DNA of 42,657 nt, taken from a virus (taxonomy: Duplodnaviria; Caudoviricetes). The stretch is from the IMG/VR virus record IMGVR_UViG_3300048886_000350, positions 1 to 42,657 of that record; one strand, written 5' to 3'. Under the pieces are notes generated by a model, which was given only the letters and a program-made list of their open reading frames with translations, was not told the DNA's origin and made no database searches. Of this stretch, positions 2,710 to 41,060 are shown in pieces. Numbering within the stretch: the first letter of the stretch is position 1; each line of letters opens with the position of its first letter. Position numbers and translations under genes: made by a program.

Positions 2710-2730
2710 TACGGAAATGAAACATCAGAA

Positions 2731-2839
2731 CAAGATTATTGCCCTCTGAGGAGGATAACTTTAATTGAGAACGATAGAGTAAACGTCCGTAACTTTAATC
2801 GTGCTAGTTTAAAACTAGTTAATTTTAATCTCAATTAAA
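2731..2839 (+). promoter_or_regulatory. Structured 5' leader of the major capsid gene
   Basis: CCTC-TGAG-GAGG hairpin near 2743-2754. 11-bp inverted repeat TTTAATTGAGA (2760-2770) / TCTCAATTAAA (2829-2839) encloses two smaller hairpins. Confidence 0.5.
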
Positions 2840-2846
2840 TTCAAAT

Positions 2847-3977: not shown

Positions 3978-3987
3978 TAACCTCTTT

Positions 3988-4069
3988 GTGAGGTGTGGTT
4001 AATCCTCTTGCCATGCCTCACGTTTGTAGAGGAGGAAACAGTAGTTCTCCATCCTCCTCTACTCTCCCC
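3988..4069 (+). ncRNA. Tandem hairpins after the capsid stop (3' UTR element or small RNA) with pyrimidine-rich loops
   Basis: Stem GTGAGGTGTGGT/GCCATGCCTCAC (3988-4021, with G-U pairs) and perfect 11-bp stem GTAGAGGAGGA/TCCTCCTCTAC (4026-4062). No long U-tract follows. Confidence 0.55.
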
Positions 4070-4103
4070 AATAATTATCCTCTTTTAATATATTCCCCTT
4101 AAA

Positions 4104-24451: not shown

Positions 24452-24685
24452 ATGAAAGATGAAGCTTTAAATTCTCTTTTTGATGCAGTAGCAGATGAAC
24501 TACTAACAAAAATCAAATCTGGAGAAGCAAAACCTGCTGACTTAGCAGTAGCTGTAAAGTTCCTAAAAGATAATAACATTACTTGTCTTCCTACAGATGG
24601 TAACTCTTTAGAAGAACTCATGAAGAGTATGCCATTTAGTGCAGATGATAAATTTTCTTATGATTCTTTTAAAGGAAGGGCATGA
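24452..24685 (+). CDS. Terminase small subunit, T7 gp18-like
   Basis: ELL.KIKSGEA.PADL.VAVKFLKDNNI motif. Start moved to ATG 24452. Confidence 0.88.
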   Translation: MKDEALNSLFDAVADELLTKIKSGEAKPADLAVAVKFLKDNNITCLPTDGNSLEELMKSMPFSADDKFSYDSFKGRA

Positions 24686-25818
24686 GTAAACAAGATTTAA
24701 AAATTCCAATCACAGAAGAAGAACTTTTCTGGAAAAATAATCCAGAACTAGCTAATGATGCAGTAGTAGATCCTCGTAAAGAAACAGTAGTTAGTGGTCA
24801 AAACTTACCTGAATTTGTTAAAAATCTTCCTGCAAAAGCAATAAAAAATCTAGGTAAAACCACTCCTTTAGGAAGAATAGGTGTGTCCTTAATTAATCCT
24901 CCTAGAGTTGGTGAACAAGTTATTACTAATGAAGAAGGAGATTTTATAAGAGATACTAGACCACATGAAAAAAAAGCAATAAAAGATTACCATACAGATC
25001 CTAAAAGAGCCTCATACAATAAAAAAACAAAAAGATGGCATGATGTTCCTATTCAAGCTTTCTCTCAGAACACAGGAAAAGTAGTAATAAAAGATCCAAT
25101 CCTACAGAGACTTAATTTAGATTTATGGGGAAAGAACAGTTCAGGACAACAAGGTTTAATTGTAGATAAAAAAGGAAAACCAGTTGTATTTGGACATGGA
25201 ACTCCATATAAAATAAAAGGAACTTTAGATCCTTCCAAAACTACAAGAAGATCTGAATTTAAAGGTGTATATACTTCTACTATAGAAAGTGAGTTTCCTA
25301 AATACATGAAAGGACAGGAAGGAGAGTTTACAGAACACTCAAATGTTCATAAGCTTTTCCTGAGAATGTATAATCCCTTAAAACTTGTTTCTCCAGAAGG
25401 AGAAGTTGGAATGGATTCATTTGCTATGAGTGAAGGAGATTCTCAGATTGTTTCCGAAGGTCTAATAAGATTAAGAATGGAACTTGAATCTCTTGATCTT
25501 ACTAATCCTACCCATAGTTCAGATATTTCAAAAATAAAATCTGAAGCTATTTTTCTTAGAACTCCAGCAGAAGTGGAAAAATATTTATATTCTTTAGACA
25601 GTGGATTAGAACTCACAGAATTTTTCCAAGGTTTAGGTTATGATGGTGTTCTTCAACAAAGTATTCCTCATGGAGAAAATGAATATACCGAAGCTATCCT
25701 ATTTAATAAGGGAAATGTTAAATCTGCTACCGATAATAAAGGAACTTTCTTAGAAAATGATGATTTAATGTCAAAAACTAAGAAAAAACGAAAAAAAGAT
25801 CTTCAAATAGTGGCTTAA
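24682..25818 (+). CDS. Protein with C-terminal ADP-ribosyltransferase-like (ART-PolyVal-type) domain
   Basis: IVDKKGKPVVFGHGT, GVYTS, NVHKLFLRMYNPL, GYDGV and EAILFNKGNVKSATDNKGTF follow the ART-PolyVal motif order. Confidence 0.7.
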   Translation: MSKQDLKIPITEEELFWKNNPELANDAVVDPRKETVVSGQNLPEFVKNLPAKAIKNLGKTTPLGRIGVSLINPPRVGEQVITNEEGDFIRDTRPHEKKAIKDYHTDPKRASYNKKTKRWHDVPIQAFSQNTGKVVIKDPILQRLNLDLWGKNSSGQQGLIVDKKGKPVVFGHGTPYKIKGTLDPSKTTRRSEFKGVYTSTIESEFPKYMKGQEGEFTEHSNVHKLFLRMYNPLKLVSPEGEVGMDSFAMSEGDSQIVSEGLIRLRMELESLDLTNPTHSSDISKIKSEAIFLRTPAEVEKYLYSLDSGLELTEFFQGLGYDGVLQQSIPHGENEYTEAILFNKGNVKSATDNKGTFLENDDLMSKTKKKRKKDLQIVA

Positions 25819-25910: not shown

Positions 25911-27590
25911 ATGAAAACCAAAAAAGAACCTAAAAATCCTTTACTTGACTTCAGGAACTTTGTTTTTTTGGTTTGGCAGCATCTAAACCTTCCAGATCCT
26001 ACTCCTGTTCAGTATGATATGGCTGAATATCTTCAATATGCTCCTAAAAGAGCAGTCATAGAAGCTTTCAGAGGAGTTGGGAAAAGTTATATTACTTCTG
26101 CATTTGTATGTTGGAAATTACTTCTAGATTCTGAAACTAAAGTCTTGGTGGTTTCTGCTTCTAAAGTTAGATCTGATGACTTCTCAACCTTTACACAGAG
26201 ATTGATAAATGAATTACCAATACTACACCATCTAAAATCTAGAGAAGGACAAAGACAAAGTAAGGTAGCATTTGACGTTGGTCCCTGCCAAGCTAGTCAT
26301 AGTCCAAGCGTAAAGTCTGTAGGAATCACTGGACAACTTTCAGGTTCCAGAGCAGACATAATAGTTGCTGATGACGTTGAAGTTCCAAATAACTCAATGA
26401 CTCAGACAATGAGAGATAAACTTTCAGAAGCAGTAAAAGAGTTTGATGCAGTACTAAAACCCGATGGTAGCATTGTCTACCTTGGTACTCCTCAGACAGA
26501 AATGAGTCTTTATGAAACACTTCCTGAAAGAGGTTATGAAGTTAGGATCTGGCCTAGTCGCTATCCTGACGAAAAACAAGTTATTAGATATTCAAATAAA
26601 CTTGCTCCATTTATTCAAGATAAGCTTGATCGTGGTTCTATTGTTGGAGATCCTACTGATCCACTCCGCTTTGATGCCGAAGACCTATTGGAGCGAGAAC
26701 TTTCTTATGGTAGATCAGGCTTTGCTCTCCAGTTTCAATTAGATACAAGTCTTTCTGATGCAGATAAGTACCCATTAAAGTTGAGTGACCTTATAATAAT
26801 GGGCGTAGATTCTACTAAGGCACCTGAAAAACCCGTATGGACAAGAGATCCAAGAAATAAACTTATTGATCTTCCAAACGTAGGACTTCCAGGTGACTTC
26901 TTCTATTCTCCAGAAACTAAACTCGGAGATTGGATTGAGTACTCCGGTTCTGTTCTTTCCATAGATCCAAGTGGAAGAGGAAAAGACGAAACTGGATATG
27001 CAGTAGTGAAGATGCTGAATGGTTATTTATATGTCTCAGAGTGTGGAGGACTCAGAGGTGGTTATAAGAATGAAAACCTTGAAGCTCTTTCTGTAATTGC
27101 AAAACGTAATGATGTAAACCTTATCCTAATAGAGTCTAACTTTGGAGATGGGATGTTCATGGAACTCCTGAAACCAATTCTTAGGAAAATTCACAATGTT
27201 ACTATAGAAGAAATAAGAAGTAATGTTCAGAAAGAGAAAAGGATTATTGATACCTTAGAACCTGTCATGAACCAACATAGGCTTGTGATTGATCCTAAGA
27301 TCATTGAAAAGGATTATAATACTATTCAAGATTATCCTGTTGAAACTCAATGCAGATATATGCTCTTTCACCAGATGACAAGAATTACAAAAGAAAAAGG
27401 AGCCTTGATCCATGACGATAGACTTGATGCTTTACAAATGGCAGTCCAATACTGGGTTGACTTCATGGCAGCAGATGCTGAGATGGAGATACAGACACGA
27501 AAAGAAGAACTCCTAGATATAGAAATAGAAAACTTTATAAATGGTGTTATGAATAAAAAAGACATAGACTCAACTCCTGTTTGGATGTAA
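25911..27590 (+). CDS. Terminase large subunit, T7 gp19-like
   Basis: AFRGVGKS Walker A, GSRADIIVADDVE Walker B, YLGTPQ, IDPSGRGKDETG nuclease motif and HDDRLDAL. Confidence 0.98.
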   Translation: MKTKKEPKNPLLDFRNFVFLVWQHLNLPDPTPVQYDMAEYLQYAPKRAVIEAFRGVGKSYITSAFVCWKLLLDSETKVLVVSASKVRSDDFSTFTQRLINELPILHHLKSREGQRQSKVAFDVGPCQASHSPSVKSVGITGQLSGSRADIIVADDVEVPNNSMTQTMRDKLSEAVKEFDAVLKPDGSIVYLGTPQTEMSLYETLPERGYEVRIWPSRYPDEKQVIRYSNKLAPFIQDKLDRGSIVGDPTDPLRFDAEDLLERELSYGRSGFALQFQLDTSLSDADKYPLKLSDLIIMGVDSTKAPEKPVWTRDPRNKLIDLPNVGLPGDFFYSPETKLGDWIEYSGSVLSIDPSGRGKDETGYAVVKMLNGYLYVSECGGLRGGYKNENLEALSVIAKRNDVNLILIESNFGDGMFMELLKPILRKIHNVTIEEIRSNVQKEKRIIDTLEPVMNQHRLVIDPKIIEKDYNTIQDYPVETQCRYMLFHQMTRITKEKGALIHDDRLDALQMAVQYWVDFMAADAEMEIQTRKEELLDIEIENFINGVMNKKDIDSTPVWM

Positions 27591-27615
27591 TTAACTTAAC
27601 ATAATATACAATTCT

Positions 27616-27632
27616 CCTACTCTAGATATGGG
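27616..27632 (+). promoter_or_regulatory. Putative phage RNA polymerase promoter (copy after terminase)
   Basis: CCTACTCTAGATAT is identical to 36047-36060, is intergenic and is followed by GGG. Position resembles the T7 right-end promoter. Confidence 0.6.
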
Positions 27633-27706
27633 CTGGTTATAATACCTATTGTTCCCTCTTTCTTAGACTTCGGATAGATATGAACCTTTAACACCAGGAA
27701 CCACCA

Positions 27707-27826
27707 ATGGCAGGAATCAAAAACAGAGGGAGTCAGATTCATAAAGTAAAAACTAAATTTAAACGAAAGAAGTATAACTTTAGAATTGACTCTAGAAGAA
27801 ATAGAATATTTAGAGAAAAATTCTGA
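27707..27826 (+). CDS. Small basic hypothetical protein (39 aa)
   Basis: MAGIKNRGSQIHKVKTKFKRKKYNFRIDSRRNRIFREKF with upstream CAGGAA, downstream of the putative promoter. Confidence 0.35.
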   Translation: MAGIKNRGSQIHKVKTKFKRKKYNFRIDSRRNRIFREKF

Positions 27827-27970
27827 GGTAGTGGATCGATAGTGATCGGAGCTTTTTCCCCCATTTAATTCCTGCGATCCATTTTATTAGCATCGGCTAA
27901 TTTTAAAAATTAGTACCATGTAATCGGCTGCAGTAGCACAGGCTAACAACAAAAGTTAGTAGACACTAAT

Positions 27971-28113
27971 AAATCTCAGGATTTCTCAGGAAACTTTGGC
28001 ACGAACTTTGCAATTCCATATTTTATACCAAACGGATTCAAACTTTTTCTGAGAATTTCTGAGAAATCCTGAGTTGATTGAGTATATATTGAATCATCCT
28101 GAGAATTTCTGAG
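27971..28113. repeat. Array of 10-bp-phased CTCAG/CTGAG repeats in the probable genome-end region
   Basis: CTCAG at 27975 and 27985; CTGAG at 28049, 28059, 28069, 28099 and 28109. CTCAGGATTTCTCAG is the exact reverse complement of CTGAGAAATCCTGAG (28059-28073). Confidence 0.8.
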
Positions 28114-28372
28114 CTTGTCTGTCTTTTTTATCTGTGTTTTTTCTCAAATACCTCAAAATCGCTCTAAACAGCATTAAATCGCTCTGTATCGCAATGTAAT
28201 GCCAAACAGATACTATCACATAGGCTGTAGTCGTTCCTTGTCATTTCCGATAAACTACACGTTTGTAGGACTTTGTATATATCAAATCAATCAATTTTCT
28301 CTGTATTTCATCTAATTTCTTTAATGATATCAGTATTTAACGTAATTAATTCACTTTTTTAAAAAAAAACAC

Positions 28373-28401
28373 TTGACATTTTCTTAACTTATCGTTATAC
28401 T
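28373..28401 (+). promoter_or_regulatory. Early sigma70 promoter 1
   Basis: TTGACA (28373-28378), 17-bp spacer, TATACT (28396-28401), with T6A9 UP-like tract upstream. Confidence 0.9.
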
Positions 28402-28445
28402 TGAAGCTCAATAATTAATTGGTTCAACTCTAAACGGAGCACATC

Positions 28446-28655
28446 ATGAATGAGAAAGTAACAAGTCGAGTCTGGAAAGATGAAAGACATATAAAAGGGA
28501 GTGAGTACTCTCAGGAAGTCAAAAACGTGAAAGCTTTTGCAAGTTATCACCAAAACCCGAAACAGAATTTTAGATCTAGAAAAAACAACGGAGTTTGCAA
28601 AAGACTTTCAAAAGCTGAGATTCAGGCATTTGAAGCCAAGTTAAAAAATAATTAA
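28446..28655 (+). CDS. Early hypothetical protein
   Basis: First ORF after promoter 1; RBS AACGGAGCACATC-ATG. Confidence 0.75.
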   Translation: MNEKVTSRVWKDERHIKGSEYSQEVKNVKAFASYHQNPKQNFRSRKNNGVCKRLSKAEIQAFEAKLKNN

Positions 28656-28663
28656 TATTTAAC

Positions 28664-28691
28664 TTGACAAAGTTGAACTAAACGCTATACT
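28664..28691 (+). promoter_or_regulatory. Early sigma70 promoter 2
   Basis: TTGACA (28664-28669), 16-bp spacer, TATACT (28686-28691), AT-rich upstream. Confidence 0.85.
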
Positions 28692-28730
28692 TAATGACAT
28701 CAACTAGTACTAACCCAAACGGAGAACATC

Positions 28731-28955
28731 ATGACCAAGAAAAGACGAAATCAAATAGACATTGAATGCCAAGCATACGGATGTCTAAGAGACATTTTTG
28801 ATACACGCAAAAGAAATTTGCAAATTAGAATCCTTGAGGAAACTGCAAACGGAGATATTGATGCAATCCAAGGTTTGCAAGCATTAGACAAATTTGAAGA
28901 AGAAAGAGATGAAGTAGAAAATGCTTTCATGAGAAAGTTTAGCCTAAGAGATTAA
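28731..28955 (+). CDS. Early hypothetical protein
   Basis: RBS CAAACGGAGAACATC-ATG. Confidence 0.75.
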   Translation: MTKKRRNQIDIECQAYGCLRDIFDTRKRNLQIRILEETANGDIDAIQGLQALDKFEEERDEVENAFMRKFSLRD

Positions 28956-28962
28956 CCTAAAA

Positions 28963-28984
28963 GGGAGAGTTTAAAAGCTCTCCC
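28963..28984. terminator. GC-rich intergenic hairpin (mRNA processing/stability, or minus-strand terminator)
   Basis: GGGAGAGT-TTAAAA-GCTCTCCC. An A-run precedes it, so the U-tract would be on the minus strand. Confidence 0.45.
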
Positions 28985-29010
28985 AAATTCAAACCCAAAC
29001 GGAGAACAAG

Positions 29011-29181
29011 ATGGAAAAGACATATACAATAAAAGCGGATCAAGTAAGCGCAGTATTCTCAGAATTAATGAATAAATATGAGGAAGAAAACGAGTCAATT
29101 ATTTATGAACTAGGCTTATTTCTAATGAGAATATCACAGTTTATAATGACAGCTTTTCTAGTCTTCACAGTAATTCAGTAA
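29011..29181 (+). CDS. 56-aa early protein with C-terminal hydrophobic segment (not in the ORF track)
   Basis: RBS CAAACGGAGAACAAG-ATG; MEKTYTIKADQVSAVFSELM...FIMTAFLVFTVIQ. Confidence 0.7.
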   Translation: MEKTYTIKADQVSAVFSELMNKYEEENESIIYELGLFLMRISQFIMTAFLVFTVIQ

Positions 29182-29202
29182 ATCTTAAAAGAGGAGAACA
29201 AG

Positions 29203-29286
29203 ATGCTAGTAAAATTGATTTTCTTTATTTATTTACTTGTTTATTTTCAAAACATAAAAGAAGGAGAACAAAATGGCACATCTTAA
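29203..29286 (+). CDS. 27-aa hydrophobic peptide (not in the ORF track)
   Basis: RBS GAGGAGAACAAG-ATG; MLVKLIFFIYLLVYFQNIKEGEQNGTS. Confidence 0.5.
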   Translation: MLVKLIFFIYLLVYFQNIKEGEQNGTS

Positions 29287-29557
29287 CGTGATTTATGATG
29301 ATCAAGGAGACACAGTAGACTATAATGTGTTCTGCTCTGATTTCTGTAATCAAGACTATTGCAGACATGAAAAAATAGAGTATCAAGGCGAATTTGGTTG
29401 TCAGGAAATACCAGTAAACACACCTTGTAAGAGTTGCAATAACTTAGTTCAAGGAATTGATAATTTTGATGGAGAAGAACAAACTCTAGAAGAGTTTGAA
29501 AAAGCAAAAAGAATTTGGGAAAGTGAAAATACTGTAACTCAGAGAATCTGGCCTTAA
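29273..29557 (+). CDS. Early Cys-rich hypothetical protein (possible Zn binding)
   Basis: FCSDFC and CKSC motifs; RBS AGGAGAACAAA-ATG. Confidence 0.75.
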   Translation: MAHLNVIYDDQGDTVDYNVFCSDFCNQDYCRHEKIEYQGEFGCQEIPVNTPCKSCNNLVQGIDNFDGEEQTLEEFEKAKRIWESENTVTQRIWP

Positions 29558-29572
29558 ACAATGGAGAACAAA

Positions 29573-29794
29573 ATGCAAGATACAATTGTAATTGATCAAT
29601 TTGGTTTTGATTATAAAATTGATCATCTTGGAACACGTAGAGGAATTGACGGACATAAAAAAGATTCTGTTTTGATTACTTTCATGTTTGATCAAATGCC
29701 TGTAAATATTGTTAAACAAGCACAAAATAAACTTTTATATGAATTCTCAGGTATAGATGTAAACTTTAGAATTCCTTGGAGTAAAACAGTTTAA
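29573..29794 (+). CDS. Early hypothetical protein
   Basis: Start reassigned to ATG 29573 behind GGAGAACAAA. Confidence 0.7.
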   Translation: MQDTIVIDQFGFDYKIDHLGTRRGIDGHKKDSVLITFMFDQMPVNIVKQAQNKLLYEFSGIDVNFRIPWSKTV

Positions 29795-29815
29795 CCTAAA
29801 AAAGAGGAGAACAAA

Positions 29816-30538
29816 ATGAGTATATTATCTGATGGAGCTAACAACGCAAAAACAATTAAAAGTGATTTATCTGACATTGTAGAAAAGTTTTTAGAAGACT
29901 ATGAAAAGGCTTTAACTGGTATCGTATATCTTGCACCTGCAAGCATCTCAGGAAAGAATGTTTGCGGTTCTTCAAGTCCTGCCTGTAGGAAAGCTTGTCT
30001 ATACTCTGCAGGACGTGGTAAGATGTCAAATGTCCAAAAGGGAAGACTGAGAAAAACAATACTATTTCTCAAATCAAGAAAAGATTATTTCAATCAATTA
30101 AATAAAGATATAGAAAAGCTTAAACGCAAATCGGTAAAGAATAAAGCTTTAACTTGTATCCGATTAAACGGAACAAGTGATTTGCCATACCAAAACATAA
30201 AACAAGGAGAAAATAATCAGAGTATAATGCATGATCATAAAGATGTCCAATTTTATGATTATACAAAAGACTGGAACCGTAAACCAAAAACAAGCAACTA
30301 TCATTTAACGTACTCAAAATCAGAACTTCACACAGAGCAGGACGTTCAGGAAATGGTAGCAAAAGGAAATAATGTTGCTGTGGTGTTTAGAGGTAAACTG
30401 CCTAAGACATACGCAGGACATACAGTTTTCAATGGAGATGATACAGATCTCAGATTTCTAGATCCTAAAGGAGTTGTAGTAGGATTAAAAGCAAAAGGAG
30501 ATGCTAAAAAAGATGTATCAGGATTTGTAGTTGATTAA
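29816..30538 (+). CDS. Gp88-like phage protein
   Basis: YLAPA...NVC....ACRKACLYSAGRG, IRLNGTSD, QFYDYTK, NYHLTYS, NVAVVF, GDDTDLRFLDP and VGLKAKG motifs. Confidence 0.85.
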   Translation: MSILSDGANNAKTIKSDLSDIVEKFLEDYEKALTGIVYLAPASISGKNVCGSSSPACRKACLYSAGRGKMSNVQKGRLRKTILFLKSRKDYFNQLNKDIEKLKRKSVKNKALTCIRLNGTSDLPYQNIKQGENNQSIMHDHKDVQFYDYTKDWNRKPKTSNYHLTYSKSELHTEQDVQEMVAKGNNVAVVFRGKLPKTYAGHTVFNGDDTDLRFLDPKGVVVGLKAKGDAKKDVSGFVVD

Positions 30539-30557
30539 CAATTAATCGGAGAACAAA

Positions 30558-30746
30558 ATGAATAAAGAAAATTTAGTACTTGTGGAAGTGACAATTAAAG
30601 ATGGAGAACTTAAAGGAGTTCAGGCATACGAAGGAGATGAACAAGAAAGAAAATTTGCATCAAATGGATGGTGTAAACCTACAAAGGGTGTTATCGTACA
30701 TACTTTGGCAATAACAGTAACCAAAAAGAAGAGGAGAAAAATATGA
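30558..30746 (+). CDS. Early hypothetical protein
   Basis: RBS CGGAGAACAAA-ATG. Confidence 0.7.
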   Translation: MNKENLVLVEVTIKDGELKGVQAYEGDEQERKFASNGWCKPTKGVIVHTLAITVTKKKRRKI

Positions 30747-30943
30747 GTAAAGAAATAGTAATTCAGGAAAGGATAGAATATGGAACAGTCAGATACTATC
30801 CTACTAATGAACTAGGAAAGAAATTTGCAAGTTTATTAGGAAAAAAGACTTTAACTCTTGAAGCTTTAAATTTTATAATTAAAGAGTTAGACATTGAAGT
30901 AAATTATAAATCCACTAATGTATTAGATCAATTTTTAAACTAG
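30743..30943 (+). CDS. Early conserved-type hypothetical protein
   Basis: YG..RYYP......FA.L.GKKTLT pattern; RBS GAGGAGAAAAAT-ATG. Confidence 0.75.
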   Translation: MSKEIVIQERIEYGTVRYYPTNELGKKFASLLGKKTLTLEALNFIIKELDIEVNYKSTNVLDQFLN

Positions 30944-30953
30944 GAGAATCAGA

Positions 30954-31100
30954 ATGGAAGAAAATAAAAGTTTAAACGAATCCACGAATAAAGAGGATTC
31001 AGACAATCCATATATAACTCCTGAAGGATGGTATATGGAATACCCGAAACCAAGGTACGAAAAGGATTCGGACAGAGGTGCTACCGATGAAGGGTGGTAA
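30954..31100 (+). CDS. 48-aa acidic early protein (not in the ORF track)
   Basis: RBS TAGGAGAATCAGA-ATG; MEENKSLNES...RGATDEGW. Confidence 0.6.
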   Translation: MEENKSLNESTNKEDSDNPYITPEGWYMEYPKPRYEKDSDRGATDEGW

Positions 31101-31105
31101 TGCCG

Positions 31106-31175
31106 TTAAAGTGGTGGTCACTTTAATGTTTTACAGTTATATTTCATTCAATGAAGAATGGAATATATTTTTTAT
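31106..31175 (+). terminator. Two AT-rich hairpins, each followed by T-rich sequence (possible weak terminators or processing sites)
   Basis: TTAAAGTG/CACTTTAA followed by TGTTTT; TATATTTCATTC/GAATGGAATATA followed by TATTTTTT. Confidence 0.35.
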
Positions 31176-31197
31176 TAATTTATTTTAGGAGAACAAG

Positions 31198-31443
31198 ATG
31201 GAAAGTTCAGAAATAAGAGAATTAGTTTTTGAAGCCTTGAGAAATTCAAAAGGTTATCGTTCTATTTTAAAAGGCATAGAATTTTCTGAGGAAAATTTAA
31301 TTCAAGTAAGAAAAGCTATACGGAAGTTTTTCAAGAATCAAAAAGTTGTTGTCCGTACTCGTTGGCGTGGAGTTAGGAATCATCACAGAGATCACAACAT
31401 TAAGAGTGAAGCTGAACATTTCGATGTTTATGTATATGCATAG
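31198..31443 (+). CDS. Early basic hypothetical protein
   Basis: RBS TAGGAGAACAAG-ATG. Confidence 0.7.
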   Translation: MESSEIRELVFEALRNSKGYRSILKGIEFSEENLIQVRKAIRKFFKNQKVVVRTRWRGVRNHHRDHNIKSEAEHFDVYVYA

Positions 31444-31445
31444 AA

Positions 31446-31736
31446 TTGTCATCCTGATAGGATCAGAATAGCATCCCGAATAGATGATAAAGAAAGTATT
31501 TGTAATACTAGGTGTTAGGCTTGGTTCCAGAAGTGCAGATCCAGGTTAGGATTAGAAAGTCCTATCTCAAAATCTTTTGAGGTCAGAATCCTTGAACAAG
31601 ATACTTTCGTTTAGTAGGGTAGTGATCGACGCGAGATCTCCGTTTGCTATCCTACTTCTCGTTTTCGTAGGGTAGGAATAAGAAATAACGTACCAGAATA
31701 TTTGGTCGAGTTCTCTTATTTCCTACTCTACTTCTC
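31446..31736 (+). ncRNA. Structured non-coding RNA block with four consecutive stem domains
   Basis: Stems at 31446-31490, 31492-31608 (multibranch), 31613-31656 and 31667-31731. Mismatches are mostly G-U on the + strand; no + strand ORF in the ORF track. Confidence 0.65.
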
Positions 31737-31742
31737 ATTCAT

Positions 31743-31827
31743 GGGCAAGTATGCAATGGAGAAAGCAACCAGACTGTAAATCTGGTGTCGCTAGACAAAG
31801 TAGGTGCAACTCCTACCTTGCCCACCA
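31743..31827 (+). tRNA. tRNA-Tyr (GUA)
   Basis: Acceptor stem GGGCAAG/CTTGCCC plus A-CCA; D arm TGC..GCA; anticodon arm CCAGA-CT-GTA-AA-TCTGG; long variable arm; T arm GTAGG-TGCAACT-CCTAC. Confidence 0.92.
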
Positions 31828-31847
31828 ACTTTAAATTGGAGAACAAA

Positions 31848-32018
31848 ATGGAAAAGGTAACTATAGAACAAGTCGAGTTTTGGCTTAGTCTTGGTGATAG
31901 CGATTGGAACAAGCTTGAGATATTAGAAGATCTCATGAATTTAGCAAATGGAGAGTACAAACCAGAGGTATTAAGAGATGACATTATAAGTACCTATCTA
32001 GCTAATAAGGAGAACTAA
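31848..32018 (+). CDS. Hypothetical protein (56 aa)
   Basis: Start reassigned to ATG 31848 behind GGAGAACAAA, because the longer ORF call overlaps the tRNA. Confidence 0.7.
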   Translation: MEKVTIEQVEFWLSLGDSDWNKLEILEDLMNLANGEYKPEVLRDDIISTYLANKEN

Positions 32019-33134
32019 ATGAAATTCTTTTCATTCGCAAGTGGAGTAGACCTGTTTGGATTAGGCATGAGACAAGCAGGACATGAACAAGTAGGTCATG
32101 CAGAAGTAGACAAATGGAGTAACTTACTTAATGAAGAATTTAACAACTCAAAAGGAGGAAATTATGGAGACATCAGAAAAATTGCAAAAGACCCAAGTAT
32201 CCTGCCAGATTTCGACATTGCCTGTGCAGGTCTACCCTGTCCTGCGTTCAGTATCGCTGGAAAACGGACAGAAAATCCCTTTGATCAAGCCGAATGTGGC
32301 GGTGACTTGTTTATACACTTTTGCAAAATCATACAATTTAAAAAACCTCGCATTCTTTTTCTTGAACAAGTCAAAGGAGTTCTATCGTCTGGCAAATGGA
32401 AAGGAGAAATCTTTAGTACCATGCTCAACAGGCTTTCAGAATTGGGGTACGATGCAGAATGGCAAACTTGTAACAGCAAGAATTTCGGAGTTCCACAAAA
32501 CAGAGAAAGAGTGTTCGTTATCGGATATCTTAGAGGAAAACCCAGACCCAAAGTATTTCCTCTCGTGGGAGAAACTAACTCGCACACTTGCAAGTCGGAG
32601 TCAGCAAAAACCGCAGTTGCTAGAACAATAAGTGGAGGAGCACACACAGGAGGAAATCATTCTGGAATGACAATTCTTCAATTAAATAAACCTAAACATT
32701 CCAATGATCGGATTTATTCTGACAAAGGAATTTCACCTACTATTAACTCGTGTTCAGGTGGTAGTAGACAACCCTTTGTTCTTACGGAAGTACGATCAGA
32801 GGAAGCAAAGAAAATAAGAAGGGAACACAAAGCAAAAACAGGAAAGGATTTCTCTCCAAGGCGAGGAAAAGAGATCGTTCCTAAAAAAGAGTCAGTCGTA
32901 GGAACTTTAACTACTAGGAAAAGTATAGAACAATCTATATTTGATGGTAAAGTCTTACGAAGACTCACACCTTTAGAGTTCTTTAGGCTACAGGGTGCAC
33001 CAGACTCTCTATATCACAAAGGAAGAGAACTTGGGATATCAGATACTCAATTGTTTAAAATGGCTGGAAATAGCGTTACTGTGCCTGTAATTAAAGCTAT
33101 AGGAGAAAGATTAAATAAAAAGGAGGATATATGA
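32019..33134 (+). CDS. DNA (cytosine-5) methyltransferase
   Basis: Motif I variant FSFASGVD, motif IV AGLPC.AFS.AG, motif VI EQV, motif VIII PQNRERVF, motif IX RRLTPLE..RLQG and motif X AGNSV. Confidence 0.93.
   Translation: MKFFSFASGVDLFGLGMRQAGHEQVGHAEVDKWSNLLNEEFNNSKGGNYGDIRKIAKDPSILPDFDIACAGLPCPAFSIAGKRTENPFDQAECGGDLFIHFCKIIQFKKPRILFLEQVKGVLSSGKWKGEIFSTMLNRLSELGYDAEWQTCNSKNFGVPQNRERVFVIGYLRGKPRPKVFPLVGETNSHTCKSESAKTAVARTISGGAHTGGNHSGMTILQLNKPKHSNDRIYSDKGISPTINSCSGGSRQPFVLTEVRSEEAKKIRREHKAKTGKDFSPRRGKEIVPKKESVVGTLTTRKSIEQSIFDGKVLRRLTPLEFFRLQGAPDSLYHKGRELGISDTQLFKMAGNSVTVPVIKAIGERLNKKEDI
32164..32631 (+). CDS. Nested alternative-frame ORF within the methyltransferase (putative second MTase-associated polypeptide)
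   Basis: Own SD AAAGGAGG just upstream of ATG 32164; 155 aa; ends with ECSLSDILEENPDPKYFLS. Confidence 0.65.
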   Translation: METSEKLQKTQVSCQISTLPVQVYPVLRSVSLENGQKIPLIKPNVAVTCLYTFAKSYNLKNLAFFFLNKSKEFYRLANGKEKSLVPCSTGFQNWGTMQNGKLVTARISEFHKTEKECSLSDILEENPDPKYFLSWEKLTRTLASRSQQKPQLLEQ

Positions 33135-33448
33135 TTGCTTATAAATTAGTACGTAAACTAAAGAGTGGAAAACTAACTCCATTGTTTATTAATAAGTCTC
33201 TAGGAATAGAATTAGATACTTGGTATAAATCTGAGTGTCATGCTACAAAAGGATTTAAAGTAAGACAAGGATGGCATTGCACATCTCTACCTATTGCTCC
33301 ACACTTATCAGAAAAAGATCGGGTGTGGATAAAGGTAGAAATTGAAGATACAACAGAACATCAACGTCCTGAATCTCAAGGCGGATTATGGTATACAGCA
33401 AATTGGATTAAATTTTTGGAGATTTTAAAGGAGAAAGATTATGGGTAG
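33131..33448 (+). CDS. Conserved-type phage hypothetical protein
   Basis: AYKL.R......L.PLFI, GF..R.GWHC...P.APHL and RPESQGG.W motifs; SD aggagg. Confidence 0.75.
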   Translation: MIAYKLVRKLKSGKLTPLFINKSLGIELDTWYKSECHATKGFKVRQGWHCTSLPIAPHLSEKDRVWIKVEIEDTTEHQRPESQGGLWYTANWIKFLEILKEKDYG

Positions 33449-33593
33449 ATGGTTCTTAATATTACCTGACATGTTGGTATTTTTTAGCATATTTGGTTTT
33501 GGATTCTTGTCTGGGATCTTTATTATTCTTATTATCGTTGCTCATAATGTGATAAAAGGTAATACATTAACAATTCGTAAAGAGGAGTTCTAA
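33441..33593 (+). CDS. 50-aa membrane protein (not in the ORF track)
   Basis: MGRWFLILPDMLVFFSIFGFGFLSGIFIILIIVAHNVIKGNTLTIRKEEF; SD aaggag; stop overlaps the RNAP start (TAATG). Confidence 0.65.
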   Translation: MGRWFLILPDMLVFFSIFGFGFLSGIFIILIIVAHNVIKGNTLTIRKEEF

Positions 33594-36037
33594 TGGAAGG
33601 AAATATATTTGAGATTCAGAAATCTTTAGAAGAAGAAATGGTTTATACTGGAATTGAAAAGTTCCAGAAACAAGTAAGAGAAGCTAAACAAAAAGGTACA
33701 GAATCCATTACCTTACATGGAATCTTACTTATGAAGAAAACAGTTATCACTCTAAGTAAAGCCATACACACTCACATAAATGAGGAGGTTTCAAAACCAG
33801 GTCGAATGAAGTCTATGACTCCTTTCCTAGCAATGCTAGAAAACGATGTAGCAGCTTTTATATCTTTAAGAGCTATCATGGATGGAATCTCACATTCTCA
33901 GAAACTTATGAATCTTTCCCATCAGATCGGACAGGCTTTATCGGATCAGGTAAGATTTAATTTTTGGGAACATCAAGATAAAAAATATTTCAGAATGCTT
34001 GTGGAAAAGATAGGGAAAATATCTGCATCTCGACATTATCGAAGGTATGGCTTAATCCGTACTGCTTCTTATAGAATGGAGGAAGAGATCCCTGTTTGGA
34101 CTCATGTAGAGAAAACACAAGTAGGACAGTTGATGATAGATCTGATAATTAGGTCAACTGGATTAATTAAACTAGGATCTACTAGATCTAAAGGAAAAAA
34201 ATATTCTTCATATACTATTGTACCAACTCAGGAAACATTAGATATGATTCAGGATATAATTAATCAAGGAGAGTTACTTTCTCCTGCTTATTTACCTATG
34301 GTAACGACTCCGAAAAAGTGGACTAATCCTTCAAATGGAGGTTATTTATCACATAGATTACCATTTATTAAGGAAACGCATAAGAATGTTAAGACTGACC
34401 TTCCATATAGTAACATGGATATGGAATTTGAGTGTGTTAATTCTTTACAGGAAACCAAGTGGAAAGTTAATACAAAAGTTCTTGATGTTATGAAAGAAGC
34501 GTGGGATCATGGGAGAATAATAGGATCTATGCCTGATCGTAATGAGATGGATTTACCTCCTCGTGATTTTCCGAAGGATCTAAAGAAGCAAGACATGGAT
34601 GAGGAGACAAAGCTCAAATTCAAAGCTTGGAAAGTGAAAGCTACCCAAGTTTATGAAGAAAATATAAGAAGAAAGAGTCAGATCCTACAATTCATGAGGA
34701 CTTTAAATCTTGCAGGAAAATTTAAAGACTTTGATCAGATTTATTTTCCTTATCAATCAGACTTTAGAGGAAGAAAATACACAGTGAGCAGTTTCTTGAC
34801 TCCGCAAGGTACTGAATATGCTAAGTCTCTTCTAACATTTGGGGAAGGATTACCAATTGAAACTCAAGAACAGGCAGATTGGTTGGCTATTCACGGAGCT
34901 AATTGTGCAGGAATAGATAAAGTAAGTTTTGATGAGAGAATCCAATGGATCTCAGAAAATGAAGAACATATTCTAAAATCTGCAGAACTTGGTCTTGACT
35001 ATGATTGGTGGACACAATTTGATGATGCTTGGATATTCTTTGCATTCTGCTCAGAATGGGCTGTATTGAAAAGAAATGGCTTAGGGGTACTCAGCTACCT
35101 CCCAATAGCTTTAGATGGCTCTAACAATGGTTTACAGCATTATTCAGCCATGTTGAGATGTCCTATTGGAGGTAAAGCAACAAACTTAACGAATGAACCT
35201 GTTCCACAGGACATTTATCAGGAAGTTGCTGATGTAGTATTTCGGGAAACCAAAAGACTAGCTGATTTAGATGATCCTATAGCTAAGAAGTGGCTTGAAT
35301 CTGGCTTGATAAATCGTAAGATGACTAAAAGACCTGTGATGGTGGTTCCTTATGGTGGAACTAGGTTCTCTGCTATGGTTTATGTAGAAGAGTATGTAAA
35401 AGATCAACTTAGGAAAGGGGAGAAGTTTGAAATACCTGAAAATGAAAAACTTTCTAAATATATAAACTGGATTACCGCCTTAGTTTGGAGTGCTATTGGA
35501 GAAGTTATAATTTCTGCTAAGGAAGCAATGACATGGATCAGAAATGTTAGTTCTGAACTCTCTAAAAAGGGTTATCCTGTTATTTGGAAAACTCCTACAG
35601 GACTCTACATCTACCAACATTACAAGGCTTTTAAATGGAGACAGATCAATACTACCATTGATGGTAAACTCTTAAAACCTGTAATTTATGAAGAGGATGG
35701 TAAGAAGATAGATGTTCATAGATCTATAAATGGATCAGCACCTAATTTCGTGCATAGTTTAGATGCCTCAGCACTAACCCTGACTGTGCATCTATGTAAC
35801 AAGGAGGAGATTAATAGCTATGCTATGATCCATGATAGTTATGGAACGCATGCCTATAATACTCCTAAACTGGCAAAACTTTTACGAGAAGCATTCGTAG
35901 ATATTTATTCTAAGAATGATGTTCTAGGTGATTTTCGTAAAGCTGCTTTGGAAGTATTGGATGAAGTTCCAGAACCTCCAAAACTAGGAAACCTTAATAT
36001 TTATGAGGTGTTAGACTCACCTTATTTTTTTAATTAA
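33593..36037 (+). CDS. Single-subunit DNA-directed RNA polymerase, T7 gp1-like
   Basis: DFRGR.Y, motif A LDGSNNGLQHYSA, motif B R...KRPVMVVPYG, PNFVHSLDA and motif C IHDSYGTH. Confidence 0.98.
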   Translation: MEGNIFEIQKSLEEEMVYTGIEKFQKQVREAKQKGTESITLHGILLMKKTVITLSKAIHTHINEEVSKPGRMKSMTPFLAMLENDVAAFISLRAIMDGISHSQKLMNLSHQIGQALSDQVRFNFWEHQDKKYFRMLVEKIGKISASRHYRRYGLIRTASYRMEEEIPVWTHVEKTQVGQLMIDLIIRSTGLIKLGSTRSKGKKYSSYTIVPTQETLDMIQDIINQGELLSPAYLPMVTTPKKWTNPSNGGYLSHRLPFIKETHKNVKTDLPYSNMDMEFECVNSLQETKWKVNTKVLDVMKEAWDHGRIIGSMPDRNEMDLPPRDFPKDLKKQDMDEETKLKFKAWKVKATQVYEENIRRKSQILQFMRTLNLAGKFKDFDQIYFPYQSDFRGRKYTVSSFLTPQGTEYAKSLLTFGEGLPIETQEQADWLAIHGANCAGIDKVSFDERIQWISENEEHILKSAELGLDYDWWTQFDDAWIFFAFCSEWAVLKRNGLGVLSYLPIALDGSNNGLQHYSAMLRCPIGGKATNLTNEPVPQDIYQEVADVVFRETKRLADLDDPIAKKWLESGLINRKMTKRPVMVVPYGGTRFSAMVYVEEYVKDQLRKGEKFEIPENEKLSKYINWITALVWSAIGEVIISAKEAMTWIRNVSSELSKKGYPVIWKTPTGLYIYQHYKAFKWRQINTTIDGKLLKPVIYEEDGKKIDVHRSINGSAPNFVHSLDASALTLTVHLCNKEEINSYAMIHDSYGTHAYNTPKLAKLLREAFVDIYSKNDVLGDFRKAALEVLDEVPEPPKLGNLNIYEVLDSPYFFN

Positions 36038-36046
36038 TTCTTTTTA

Positions 36047-36063
36047 CCTACTCTAGATATAGA
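36047..36063 (+). promoter_or_regulatory. Putative phage RNA polymerase promoter (copy after RNAP gene)
   Basis: CCTACTCTAGATAT-AGA immediately downstream of the RNAP stop, where T7-like phages place the first class II promoter; 14-bp identity with 27616-27629. Confidence 0.65.
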
Positions 36064-36072
36064 AAGGAAATC

Positions 36073-36288
36073 ATGGAACAACTTGAATATCAAGCAATAG
36101 AGATATTAAAATCAGGAGAACCTTTACCTGTAGATATCTATATAGAACTTAATAATTCTGGAATAGATCCAGAATATCTTATAAATCTTTTTACAAAGGA
36201 GGAAGCAGAAGAAGATGAAGTAATAGAAGATGGATTAGATCCATTACAAAGAGAAATATTAGGTGAATTCTCATCTAATCAATATTAA
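36073..36288 (+). CDS. Small acidic hypothetical protein
   Basis: GEPLPVD....L...GID pattern; SD aaagga. Confidence 0.65.
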   Translation: MEQLEYQAIEILKSGEPLPVDIYIELNNSGIDPEYLINLFTKEEAEEDEVIEDGLDPLQREILGEFSSNQY

Positions 36289-36309
36289 TATATAATATAG
36301 GAGAACAAT

Positions 36310-36867
36310 ATGGCAGTAGAAAAACTGGTAAGTCCAAAAGCAAAATGTAAATGGGTTAATGTTAAAAGACCACATCCTGAATATGATGTGTTCCAAATTA
36401 ACCTTCTTCTTCCTGCTAAATCAAAGGAAGCAAAAAGCTGGATGGAAAAAATTGATGGGTGGATCGCAGATGAAGTTGCCTCTTCAGGTAAAAAAGCATC
36501 TGAGTTTCTTCCATACAAAGAAGATGGTGATGATATCGTCTTCAAGTTCAAGCAGAAAGCCACAATCAAAGGAAGAAATGGGGAATCTCGTGATATTAAG
36601 ATCATGGTTGTAGATTCTCAGATGAAGCCTTGTAATGTGGATATTGGTTGGGGATCAACTGTTAAGGTTTCTTACTCTCCAATACAATACACTGTAAACG
36701 GGAAATCCGGTGTCACTATGTATTTCAATGCGGTTCAGGTCTTGGATCTTGTTGAATACGATGGAGGAGAAACATCAGGATTTACTAAGGAGGAAGGTTT
36801 CACTTCAGAAGAATCTACAGAGAATCCTTTTGTAGCTTCAGAATCTGAGGATGATGACGATTTCTAA
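36310..36867 (+). CDS. Single-stranded DNA-binding protein, T7 gp2.5-like
   Basis: FKFKQKA, IG.GS.VKV, GV.....AVQVLDLVEY and an acidic tail ending in Phe (EDDDDF). Confidence 0.92.
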   Translation: MAVEKLVSPKAKCKWVNVKRPHPEYDVFQINLLLPAKSKEAKSWMEKIDGWIADEVASSGKKASEFLPYKEDGDDIVFKFKQKATIKGRNGESRDIKIMVVDSQMKPCNVDIGWGSTVKVSYSPIQYTVNGKSGVTMYFNAVQVLDLVEYDGGETSGFTKEEGFTSEESTENPFVASESEDDDDF

Positions 36868-37225
36868 TCGTTATAGATCTAATCTAGAAGGGTCAGTAGC
36901 TGATCATCTAGAAAAGCAAGAAGTTAGTTTTATCTTTGAGCCTAAAACTCACCGAATAGGTTATGAGGTTCCAAAGAAATATCAACCTGACTTCTTGCTT
37001 CCTAATGGTATACTGATAGAAGTTAAAGGATGGTTCAAAGCTGAAGATCAGAGAAAACATAGACTGATTAGACAGCAACATCCAGAACTAGATATTAGAT
37101 TTGTGTTTGGAAAACTTAAAAGTAAAGTTCAAGGAGGAAGGTATACTTGTCAAGAATGGTGTGAGAAATATAAATTTCTATATGCCGAATCAATAGTACC
37201 TAACTCATGGATACATGAAAAATAA
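36851..37225 (+). CDS. Endonuclease I (Holliday junction resolvase), T7 gp3-like
   Basis: YRS.LE, Y.PDFLLPNGILIEVKG, DQRKH..IRQQHPELDIRFVF and WCEK motifs. Confidence 0.95.
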   Translation: MMTISNRYRSNLEGSVADHLEKQEVSFIFEPKTHRIGYEVPKKYQPDFLLPNGILIEVKGWFKAEDQRKHRLIRQQHPELDIRFVFGKLKSKVQGGRYTCQEWCEKYKFLYAESIVPNSWIHEK

Positions 37226-37226
37226 T

Positions 37227-37261
37227 TTTTTTCGTCGATATTTTTCTTAAGGACGAAAAAA
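37227..37261. other. 10-bp intergenic inverted repeat between the gp3-like and gp4-like genes
   Basis: TTTTTTCGTC (37227-37236) / GACGAAAAAA (37252-37261). Confidence 0.5.
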
Positions 37262-37278
37262 TTTTTAAAAGGAGGATT

Positions 37279-38907
37279 ATGGGAGAACAAGAATCAGTTT
37301 GTATTACCCACGCACCTTGTCCTAGATGTGGTTCAGTAGATAACCTAGCACTCTATGATGATGGTCATGGTTGGTGTTTTACTCCAGGATGTGGATATAG
37401 ACAACAAGGAGATACTAAAGAAAATCTTAAACAAGAGGAGAAATATAGTATGGATTTCATAAAAGGAGAATCAGAACCACTTAAAAAGCGTGGTTTAACT
37501 AAAGCTACTGTAAGTAAGTGGTCTTACCAAATTGGAGAATTCAAAGGTAAAAAAGTCCAGATTGCTAATTACAAAAAAGATGGACATGTAGTAGCTCAGA
37601 AACTCAGGTTTCCTAACAAAGATTTCCTGTTTATAGGAGATACTAAAGAAGCAGGACTTTACGGAAAACACTTATGGGAAAAAGGGAAAATGATCACCAT
37701 TTGTGAAGGTGAAATAGATGCCATGTCTGTCTCTCAGGCTCAAGGTAACAAATGGCCTGTAGTATCTATCCCAACTGGAGCAGCAGGAGCAAGGAAAGCA
37801 ATTCAGAACGACTTAGAATACCTAGAAAATTTTGAGTCAGTTATACTAATGTTCGATCAGGATGAAGCTGGACAAAAAGCTGTGGATGATTGTGTTCAGT
37901 TGTTTTCTCCAGGAAAAGTAAAGATTGCTACCCTTCCTCTTAAAGATCCAAATGAAATGATCCAAGCAGGAAGAGGTGCAGAAATAATAAACCAGATCTG
38001 GAATGCAAAAAGTTATAGACCTGATGGCATCATTGATGGAAAAGACCTATGGGATCTTGTTAGTACCATAGTAGAAACAGATTCAATGCCTTATCCTTTC
38101 AATGGATTGAATAACATGACTCAGGGTATTCGTAAAGGTGAGATTGTGACAATCACTGCAGGTTCAGGAGTAGGGAAGTCTCAGGTTTGTAGAGAGATCG
38201 CTTATTCCCTAATGCTTCAGGATCAAAAAGTGGGATACCTTGCACTTGAGGAGAACACTAAGAGGACTGCGCTTGGATTTATAGGACTATATCTTAACAA
38301 GCCTATTCATCTACAAAGTGTAGACCATACTCCAGAAGAATTAAAGAGTGGATTTGATAATGTACTAGGTACAGGAAATCTATTCCTCTACGATCATTGG
38401 GGAAGTATGGAAGTAAACCATCTCTTTAACAAGATACGATACCTTGTAAAAGGTGTAGGATGTAGCCACATTATCTTGGATCATCTGACCATAGTTCTTT
38501 CAGGATTAGAAGGCGGAGATGAAAGGAGAATGTTAGATTTTGTAATGACTAAACTACGTTCTTTAGTGGAAGAAGTTCAATGCTCTTTAATTCTCGTATC
38601 TCACTTACGAAGACCTACAGGAGATAAAGGTCATGAAGAAGGAGTCAGGACTACCTTGAACCAGTTAAGAGGTTCTCATGGGATAGCTCAACTCTCTGAC
38701 ATAGTAATTGGTTGCGAAAGAAACCAACAAGACGAGGAGAATCCAGATCTCACAACCATCAGAGTTCTAAAAAACCGATGGACAGGAGAAACTGGAATTG
38801 CAGATACCTTACATTATTCTAAAGAAACTGGAAGAATGGTAGTTACTGCTTCAGTTAATGAAGCTAAATCTTATGGATTTGAAAAGGAGAATAAGGAGGA
38901 TTTCTAA
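37279..38907 (+). CDS. DNA primase/helicase, T7 gp4-like
   Basis: Zn finger CPRCGS...C...C, EGEIDAMS, TOPRIM FDQDEAG, Walker A AGSGVGKS, LDHL, VSHLRR, LRGS and KNRWTGETG. Internal SD plus in-frame ATG 37450 resembles gp4B. Confidence 0.98.
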   Translation: MGEQESVCITHAPCPRCGSVDNLALYDDGHGWCFTPGCGYRQQGDTKENLKQEEKYSMDFIKGESEPLKKRGLTKATVSKWSYQIGEFKGKKVQIANYKKDGHVVAQKLRFPNKDFLFIGDTKEAGLYGKHLWEKGKMITICEGEIDAMSVSQAQGNKWPVVSIPTGAAGARKAIQNDLEYLENFESVILMFDQDEAGQKAVDDCVQLFSPGKVKIATLPLKDPNEMIQAGRGAEIINQIWNAKSYRPDGIIDGKDLWDLVSTIVETDSMPYPFNGLNNMTQGIRKGEIVTITAGSGVGKSQVCREIAYSLMLQDQKVGYLALEENTKRTALGFIGLYLNKPIHLQSVDHTPEELKSGFDNVLGTGNLFLYDHWGSMEVNHLFNKIRYLVKGVGCSHIILDHLTIVLSGLEGGDERRMLDFVMTKLRSLVEEVQCSLILVSHLRRPTGDKGHEEGVRTTLNQLRGSHGIAQLSDIVIGCERNQQDEENPDLTTIRVLKNRWTGETGIADTLHYSKETGRMVVTASVNEAKSYGFEKENKEDF

Positions 38908-40640: not shown

Positions 40641-40641
40641 T

Positions 40642-41052
40642 ATGTCATCTCAAGGACTGATAAATCAGTCTATAGGACAAGCAGGAGAAGATCTTGTACG
40701 TTATATATTACATAGATGGAATTATGATATCTTTGAACCAACTAATCCATGTAGTAAATGTGATTTTGTAATCAATAAAGGTAATAAATGGATTACAATT
40801 CAAGTTAAAGCAACCGAAAAAGGAGAACGTATCATCTTAAAACGAGAGAATGGAGATAGATATAGAGCTAAATCAGTTAAATATCCCTATACAAAAGATG
40901 ATTTTGATTTATTATTTGTAGTAAAATTTCCTTTAATTTATGTGATTCCTTTTGAAGATATTGGAGGAAATAGTTTAACTTTAAAATACTATGAGGAGTA
41001 CGGATACGATATAAATGATCCTGAAACTTACAACAATCCACCTAACCTATAA
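40642..41052 (+). CDS. PD-(D/E)XK endonuclease, group I intron-associated type (possible free-standing homing endonuclease)
   Basis: GQAGE..V, CDFVI, IQVKAT, Y...DFDLLFVV and IYVIPF motifs. Start moved to ATG 40642. Confidence 0.7.
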   Translation: MSSQGLINQSIGQAGEDLVRYILHRWNYDIFEPTNPCSKCDFVINKGNKWITIQVKATEKGERIILKRENGDRYRAKSVKYPYTKDDFDLLFVVKFPLIYVIPFEDIGGNSLTLKYYEEYGYDINDPETYNNPPNL

Positions 41053-41060
41053 GAGGAAAT

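Follow-up and report, generated by a model that had tools for sequence, protein, structure and literature searches.

A conserved two-hairpin RNA behind the capsid gene of an uncultured T7-like phage: a candidate late translational off-switch for tagged genes

The RNA behind the capsid gene

The stretch of DNA analysed here (the window, 42,657 nucleotides) is the near-complete genome of an uncultured marine T7-like phage, with PHROG matches for portal, scaffold, capsid, tail tube, terminase, RNA polymerase, helicase and DNA polymerase genes. The major capsid gene occupies positions 2847–3977 (+ strand, PHROG 267). A structured RNA begins directly behind its stop codon, and the Tail tubular protein A gene follows at 4104–4730 (+ strand, PHROG 446). 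Two sigma-70-like promoters, recognised by consensus matches only (11/12), stand at the head of the early region (28373–28691, + strand). The gene preceding that of the large terminase (24682–25818) codes for a protein with an ART-PolyVal ADP-ribosyltransferase domain (E 1.3e-10).

A relative carrying the same post-capsid RNA (G002) has a tRNA-Leu half ahead of its RNA polymerase region. These 42 bases match one stretch in 185,579 genomes, located in a SAR324 genome, which by way of this relative points to SAR324 as the likely host of the window phage. The closest capsid among 50,697 phage records is 35% identical at best, so that among the records searched no cultured phage comes near this presumed SAR324 phage. 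Halves of tRNA-Leu or tRNA-Ser are located upstream of the RNA polymerase gene, beside a gene of 313–347 codons, in G002, G006 and G009, and probably represent attachment sites of temperate relatives. No tRNA half lies upstream of the RNA polymerase gene in the window phage, and a search of genome contigs for prophage relatives via the RNA polymerase found none.

The post-capsid unit spans 3988–4062 and folds into two hairpins with the loops UAAUCCUCUU and AGUUCUCCAU. Hairpin 1 (3988–4021, + strand) is predicted to present UAAUCCUCUU (4000–4009), the complement of AAGAGGA(U), at an opening cost of 0.2 kcal/mol. The loop of hairpin 2 (4026–4062, + strand) holds GUUCUCCAU (4044–4052), the complement of (AU)GGAGAAC, and costs 1.5 kcal/mol to open. 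An unpaired C/U-rich tail follows (4063–4103, + strand); it includes a further AUCCUCUU (4077–4084), has no U-run terminator and doubles as the leader of the tail tube gene, which lacks a Shine-Dalgarno (SD) sequence.

The first-pass annotation had described hairpin 2 as the first of three copies of one RNA family. All three stems exist, those of copies 2 and 3 at 31614–31655 and 31667–31731, with folding z scores of -4.5, -2.7 and -5.0 against shuffles. A pattern drawn from the three copies matches the window three times, and 100 shuffles not once; since it was derived from the copies themselves, this shows only that the shared stem is not background. The hairpin behind the capsid gene is real but is the second of two, hairpin 1 having been missed, and the three copies do not form one family: they do not all fit the covariance model of the post-capsid RNA and share the closing stem only. 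The covariance model of the post-capsid RNA gives 91.6 bits for this RNA itself and 14.5 bits for copy 3 (E 0.09, via the closing stem), while copy 2 was unreported separately. As for the compensatory change claimed between copies 1 and 3, reading of the sequence confirms one double change, accompanied by one G-U change. The antisense motifs themselves were read correctly: GTTCTCC is located at 4044, AGTTCTC at 4043 and 31709, and TCTCCGTTTG at 31637 is the complement of CAAACGGAGA at 28716 and 28996. CAAACGGAGA occurs a third time at 28846, within a gene.

Relatives with the same RNA are referred to below as type A. Of the alignment cells assigned to stems in the 25 distinct sequences of type A, 99.8% are paired, a level reached by none of 500 shuffles, and double changes occur at 9 of the 11 pairs of hairpin 1. 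The seven scored pairs of the lower stem of hairpin 2 are invariant and therefore uninformative on structure. Frequent G-U pairs fix the RNA to the + strand. In contrast to the covarying stem of hairpin 1, both loops (UCCUCUU and GUUCUCCAU) are constant across these relatives, though this constancy is partly circular, as type A was sorted by loop motifs; no locus combined type A stems with other loops. An RNase III site is expected to constrain the stem and not the loop. The post-capsid stems are 11–12 bp long and have large fixed loops, and an intrinsic terminator (a short-loop G+C stem followed by a U-run) was found on the + strand neither in 2500–5000 nor in 27500–33500. The site behind the capsid gene in the type A clade is thus not an ordinary terminator. 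Nor does it match an Rfam family: at the gathering threshold Rfam finds only tRNA in the window and, likewise, in eight related early-cluster loci. Contigs from RNA libraries, which cannot show ends or strand, cover 4019–4216 (depth 2.8) and 3955–4105 (depth 3.7).

The distribution of this RNA was followed in two sets of capsid loci. From the first (the best 80 of 258) nine cut-off loci were excluded and 71 were sorted: 34 carry type A (plus two cut short), 16 type B, seven type C, ten plain terminators, and two are distant others. A search of viral contigs with the loop pattern returned 36 matches, all 36 in loci holding both the capsid and the tail-tube genes. In the second, more distant set (80 of 283 loci, 14 of them cut off, four contigs common to both sets) a plain terminator lies behind the capsid gene in 65 of the 66 usable loci. 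Taken with a capsid tree, which is a quick tree only, these outgroup terminators suggest that the terminator was ancestral and was later replaced by the RNA. T7 itself has its T-phi terminator between the capsid and tail tube genes. The type A clade shares the position and differs from T-phi in its large fixed loops and the lack of a U-run.

The type B RNA, found in a sister clade, differs from type A and has the loop CCUUCCU. In one contig (L018) the capsid gene and its leader are of type A and the RNA behind them is of type B, which shows that the RNA is exchangeable; this contig is too short to include the start motifs. Type C RNAs (L044, L051, L055, L060, L063, L067 and L070) have a long stem with an open C/A-rich loop, which in L044 reads CCACCCACCUCCCACACACCUCUC and does not match the phage's own starts. 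No further copies of the post-capsid RNA were found in 34 loci, including types B, C and T and the early clusters, and none in 41 host genomes (a search made without a positive control).

The position of the RNA invites an explanation confined to the capsid/tail-tube junction, where it could act in cis as a stabiliser, as a pause or processing site or by throttling translation of the tail tube, in place of the lost terminator, with the loops binding a protein or pairing internally. The RNA does occupy the former terminator spot, the lower stem of hairpin 2 is invariant and the tail-tube leader has no SD. Moreover, loop 1 (UCCUCU) complements the 5' strand of hairpin 2 (AGAGGR), as read from the alignment, so transient internal pairing is possible. 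Such a role leaves unexplained why the loops of both type A and type B are complements of the commonest start motifs of their phages, there is no U-run, and the capsid leader offers loop 2 no conserved partner. We consider a cis-only role unlikely, although it can coexist with the late off-switch proposed below. Kissing between the 5' and 3' ends of the capsid message was rejected: the GAGGAGG of the leader sits in a stem common to all RNA types and changes to GTGG in L025–L027 without a change of the loop, and GAGAAC is not conserved.

Two further elements lie upstream of the capsid gene. A hairpin inside the scaffold gene (2112–2159) has a loop ending in CACCACCUCC, close to the 16S tail; its stem is kept in eight type A genomes or contigs, a search with the same pattern gave none in the other types, and it may reflect protein constraint. 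Between the scaffold and capsid genes the motif GCCCTCTGAGGAGGATAAC (2750–2775) recurs in every one of the four RNA types with changes in its stem and is possibly a promoter or a processing site.

The RNA cluster upstream of tRNA-Tyr

Copies 2 and 3 belong to a cluster in the early region, between an 81-codon gene and a tRNA-Tyr (GTA) gene (31743–31827, + strand; ARAGORN; Rfam RF00005, 48.2 bits). The tRNA has the unusual T-loop UGCAACU; the one in L253 has the usual UUCGAAU. Four folded cassettes precede it, all on the + strand, and copies 2 and 3 are the last two. The first (31446–31490, z -2.35) has variants in L236 and L240. The second, a multibranch cassette of 117 bases (31492–31608, z -2.21), is absent at this place in L228, L233, L262, L263 and L279, which are close relatives. 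Copy 2 (31614–31655) is a conserved cassette usually located immediately before tRNA-Tyr. Copy 3 (31667–31731), in which AGUUCUCUU is mostly paired, has an inner domain that recurs in a longer cassette of L240.

Relatives carry copy 2 alone, copy 3 alone, both of them or other folded inserts between the 81-codon gene and the tRNA. Such inserts are present in L240 (between copy 2 and tRNA-Tyr), L234, L271 and L235; one insert of the cluster is a cassette of about 200 bases containing the inner domain of copy 3, and these inserts have no Rfam match. Cutting out a tRNA can release the flanking RNA. Copies 2 and 3 are separate cassettes, likely to be real RNAs and perhaps released by processing of the downstream tRNA. 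Four RNA runs, picked by their capsid region, contain no contigs of the early cluster.

The first-pass annotation read all three hairpins as small anti-SD RNAs. This reading fits the post-capsid RNA, as a prediction, and fits copies 2 and 3 weakly or not at all. Their antisense stretches, predicted to be mainly paired, cost 7.0 (copy 2) and 6.1 kcal/mol (copy 3) to open, and 2/23 and 0/23 early/middle starts, respectively, give a net pairing of -6 kcal/mol or better. Covariation amounts to zero double changes in eight sequences of copy 2 and one in six sequences of copy 3. The stretch of copy 2 matches the starts at 28731 and 29011 by 10 bases, and copy 2 may pair with these two earliest starts. 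Among the relatives, L271 retains TCTCCGTTTG in its copy 2 and has no AAACGGA in its early region, L085 has the AAACGGA start motif and is missing copy 2, and the stretch is interrupted in the copy 2 of L253. The antisense stretch of copy 3 is identical in 6/6 sequences, though mostly paired, and attains -6 kcal/mol at no start.

A conserved host target for copy 2 was sought and rejected, as a 12-base complement is present in 6 of 27 genomes, which is chance level (four for a control pattern). The viral pattern search for copy 2 first gave one real match in four; a wider one gave 65 loci, mostly unrelated hairpins. A strong hairpin (GGGAGAG...CTCTCCC, 28963–28984) lies just upstream of the start at 29011.

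Loop complements at phage start sites

In the window GGAGAAC stands ahead of 9 of the 12 starts between 28446 and 32019 (the row at 29206, a short ORF with a misplaced start, is omitted), in agreement with the earlier statement that it precedes most early genes. The predicted targets in the early region (28716–32015, + strand) comprise GGAGAAC at 28721, 29001, 29193, 29263, 29563, 29806, 30548, 31188, 31838 and 32009, together with AAGAGGA, the predicted target of loop 1, at 29189, 29802 and 30729 (+ strand). Those of the middle genes (33580–41057, + strand) are AAGAGGA before the RNA polymerase (33580) and exonuclease (41051) genes, with GGAGAAC before the ssDNA-binding protein gene (36300, + strand). 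AAGAGGA is also present at the scaffold start at 1897 (1883–1889, + strand). The leader of the capsid gene has no SD judging by leader energy, as had been noted before.

Pairing energies were computed for hand-chosen window starts, opening costs included. A net pairing of at most -6 kcal/mol is predicted for loop 2 at 13/23 early/middle starts and for loop 1 at 6/23, compared to 0/23 late starts for either loop. The host anti-SD also pairs more strongly with early/middle starts than with late ones (median -8.0 vs -6.2), which explains part of this contrast.

The count was extended to fourteen genomes or contigs, leaving out G059 and G061 as near copies and G054–G057 and G060 for their small number of early/middle genes. 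Start calling was automatic and gave weight to pairing with the host anti-SD; several of the called starts, including that of the capsid gene, are wrong. The type A loops match, by at least 7 bases, 70 of the 112 early/middle starts of type A vs 5 of 93 type A late starts. At the early/middle starts of the other clades such matches are found in 3/46 (type B), 7/88 (type C) and 9/52 (terminator-type) cases; one terminator-type genome, G005, has 7/26. Host starts (398 kb of one genome) match in 15 of 330 cases. The type B loops match 17/46 type B starts vs 3/112 of type A, and 11/330 host starts. Tags are thus nearly absent from late and host starts, and loop and tag change jointly between the two clades. 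As the match is found in only two clades, the counts are not independent and Fisher values overstate it.

The tags are also prominent among the 622 SD-like 7-mers, GGAGAAC and AAGAGGA ranking first (tied) and third in type A, and AGGAAGG, which complements the type B loop CCUUCCU, ranking first in type B. GGAAGAG, the complement of the second stretch of type B (its internal loop), is rare (2/24 starts in G007, 0/10 in G008). Decoy loops retaining the 4-base anti-SD core, in 2000 trials per genome, reached the observed count 0, 1, 0, 3 and 0 times in the five type A genomes and 1, 64 and 67 times in type B. The pairing is therefore above what an anti-SD core alone provides, at 0 to 3 of 2000 for type A. 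Neither of two outcomes that the first-pass annotation named as refuting its reading, unconserved antisense segments in relatives and a lack of excess pairing over controls, was observed for the post-capsid RNA.

Since C/U-rich loops can pair with any GAGG or GGAG by 4–5 bases, the RNA could instead be a general anti-SD decoy directed against host messages, contributing to host shut-off, with the match to phage starts as a by-product. The type C RNAs fit such a decoy: their loops match 2/33, 1/29 and 1/26 of their own starts (4/88 in total), and those of the L044 kind contain CACCUCC, a stretch equal to seven bases of the 16S tail, and do not match phage starts. For type C a host-directed decoy is the better reading. 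The loops of types A and B, however, deviate from the 16S tail toward the phage tags, they match only the 15 and 11 of 330 host starts given above, and with a host-directed decoy phage genes should be driven to avoid the motif rather than to acquire it. As an account of the post-capsid RNA as a whole we hold the host decoy to be rather unlikely.

Another possibility was that the tags copy an unusual anti-SD of the host. It was rejected for types A and C, because the 16S tail is canonical in 13/13 loci of the host group; the attachment-like tRNA halves of type C also match G011 and three relatives of G011. Helix 45 of the 16S rRNA reads GUAGGAGAACCU in 11 of these 13 loci (L176–L188) and contains GGAGAAC, the phage start tag.

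The last observation could mean that the loops are aimed at host RNA with GGA motifs, either helix 45 or a Csr-type sponge RNA, and CsrA is indeed encoded in 26 of 27 host-group genomes. The match to helix 45 is of 7 bases only and lies within a stable ribosomal hairpin, and neither loop 1 nor the type B loop has such a match, which makes a host RNA target highly improbable.

Scaffold orthologues permit a comparison of the same gene between RNA types. Of the 23 distinct leaders of type A, 14 have AAGAGGA, and 7/7 of type B have AGGAAGG, while all examined leaders of type C (4) and of the terminator type (38) have neither; loci without a usable start (4 type A, 2 B, 2 C, 22 terminator-type) were left out. 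Among these orthologues the tag motif tracks the RNA type.

The scaffold gene lies upstream of the RNA on what is likely the same transcript, and its start is tagged in types A and B. The loops might therefore pair with tagged messages to another end, namely decay, stabilisation or control of the scaffold alone within one transcript. Pairing of a 3'UTR with the SD of the same message has a precedent in icaR (PMC3868564). At the scaffold start, however, loop 2 matches fewer than 7 bases, yet it matches at least 7 at ten early/middle starts, and covering of an SD would be hard to square with activation. We regard an outcome of this kind as decidedly improbable.

Capsid leaders of types A, B and C are without GGAG or GAGG (one type B start is miscalled). 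Among terminator-type leaders an SD is present in 7/8 of the first set, and GGAG/GAGG is absent in 13/19 of the second. A weak or absent capsid SD is not special to the RNA-bearing clades.

A candidate late off-switch and related systems

With somewhat better than even confidence, we propose from these comparisons that the conserved post-capsid RNA is a late translational off-switch for those early, replication and scaffold genes that bear the tags. It would be produced in bulk, either as the capsid message's 3' end or as a fragment cleaved from that message. Its two open loops would pair with the tagged ribosome-binding sites in the messages of these genes and keep ribosomes from entering, 7–9 base pairs presumably being sufficient without Hfq. 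Pairing would repress these messages, ribosomes would shift to the capsid message, and most late messages, having no tags, would be spared. Also counting against the switch, the starts of RNA polymerase, helicase and DNA polymerase are among the predicted targets and these proteins are perhaps still needed late, and the pairing is short, with no Hfq found in 27 incomplete host-group genomes.

The proposal may be widened to an RNA address code, in which an RNA at the end of the capsid message recognises tags in the ribosome-binding sites of this phage's early genes, replication genes and scaffold gene and silences all of these genes jointly. Such a code would amount to an RNA version of T4 RegB. 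It would have taken the place of an ancestral terminator and changed in step with its targets from one sister clade to the other, and it may exemplify a design used by many unrelated phages behind their capsid genes. This wider version we put forward tentatively, as a little more apt to fail than to hold.

Gene timing in T7-like phages is considered to be mainly a matter of transcription. If true, the switch would add a protein-free translational timer to this scheme, and the RNA of each clade should repress its own start sites and spare those of the other clade. It would also suggest a purpose for the repeated start motifs of other phages and offer orthogonal pairs of RNA and ribosome-binding site for gene control.

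Several known systems resemble parts of this arrangement. Closest in shape are the cuckoo RNAs of Alphaproteobacteria (RSs0680 and relatives), which consist of 2–4 adjacent hairpins with a CCUCCUCCC loop in each, and whose targets are open there (PMC4615179). Adjacent hairpins, variable stems and a fixed anti-SD-like loop are common to both, although here hairpin 1 varies and the lower stem of hairpin 2 is fixed. The phage RNA differs in having the loops UAAUCCUCUU and AGUUCUCCAU instead of CCUCCUCCC, in the match of its two loops to two phage start motifs and in its location behind the capsid gene.

RsaE and other sRNAs of Staphylococcus aureus with a C-rich motif pair with their targets through this unpaired motif and block formation of the initiation complex, and they are expressed independently of Hfq (PMC2790875). 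The post-capsid RNA likewise has a conserved, predicted-open pyrimidine seed complementary to SD regions, with matches of 7–9 bases. Unlike it, RsaE is a bacterial stand-alone sRNA with a UCCC motif and no clade-specific tag. A similar pairing, which for the phage is a prediction, joins a pyrimidine motif of the icaR 3'UTR to an SD; there, a single target is located in the same message, whereas the post-capsid RNA would have dozens of predicted targets, mostly in other messages (PMC3868564).

Tags in the SD region are known from T4, where the endoribonuclease RegB shuts off early phage messages via the consensus GGAGRAYARAA (PMC1702504). Five window starts (29273, 29573, 29816, 30558 and 31848) meet this consensus exactly. 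PHROGs and Pfam scans of 37 and 25 proteins found no member of the RegB family, many small ORFs being without a family assignment; unlike the protein nuclease of T4, the reader of the tag here would be an RNA. Cluster K mycobacteriophages have repeated start-associated sequences, suggested to bind host or phage RNA or protein (PMC3203893). They share with the window phage a repeated motif at gene starts and differ in its length of 13 bases and, in the available text, in that no complementary RNA is named.

In the literature searched, judged by titles and abstract openings, no such phage RNA system is described, and the passages of PMC5737381 consulted contain nothing on such an RNA. A set of 8,495 structured RNAs was predicted from IMG/VR (PMC10690425). 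Six motifs sought in four of its supplementary files were not found there, and the bare post-capsid structure may be catalogued among its alignments. In a distant phage (L075 and L076, 33% capsid identity), whose called starts lack GGAGAAC, TAGTTCTCCA, identical to loop 2 of type A, is located between the capsid stop codon and the terminator.
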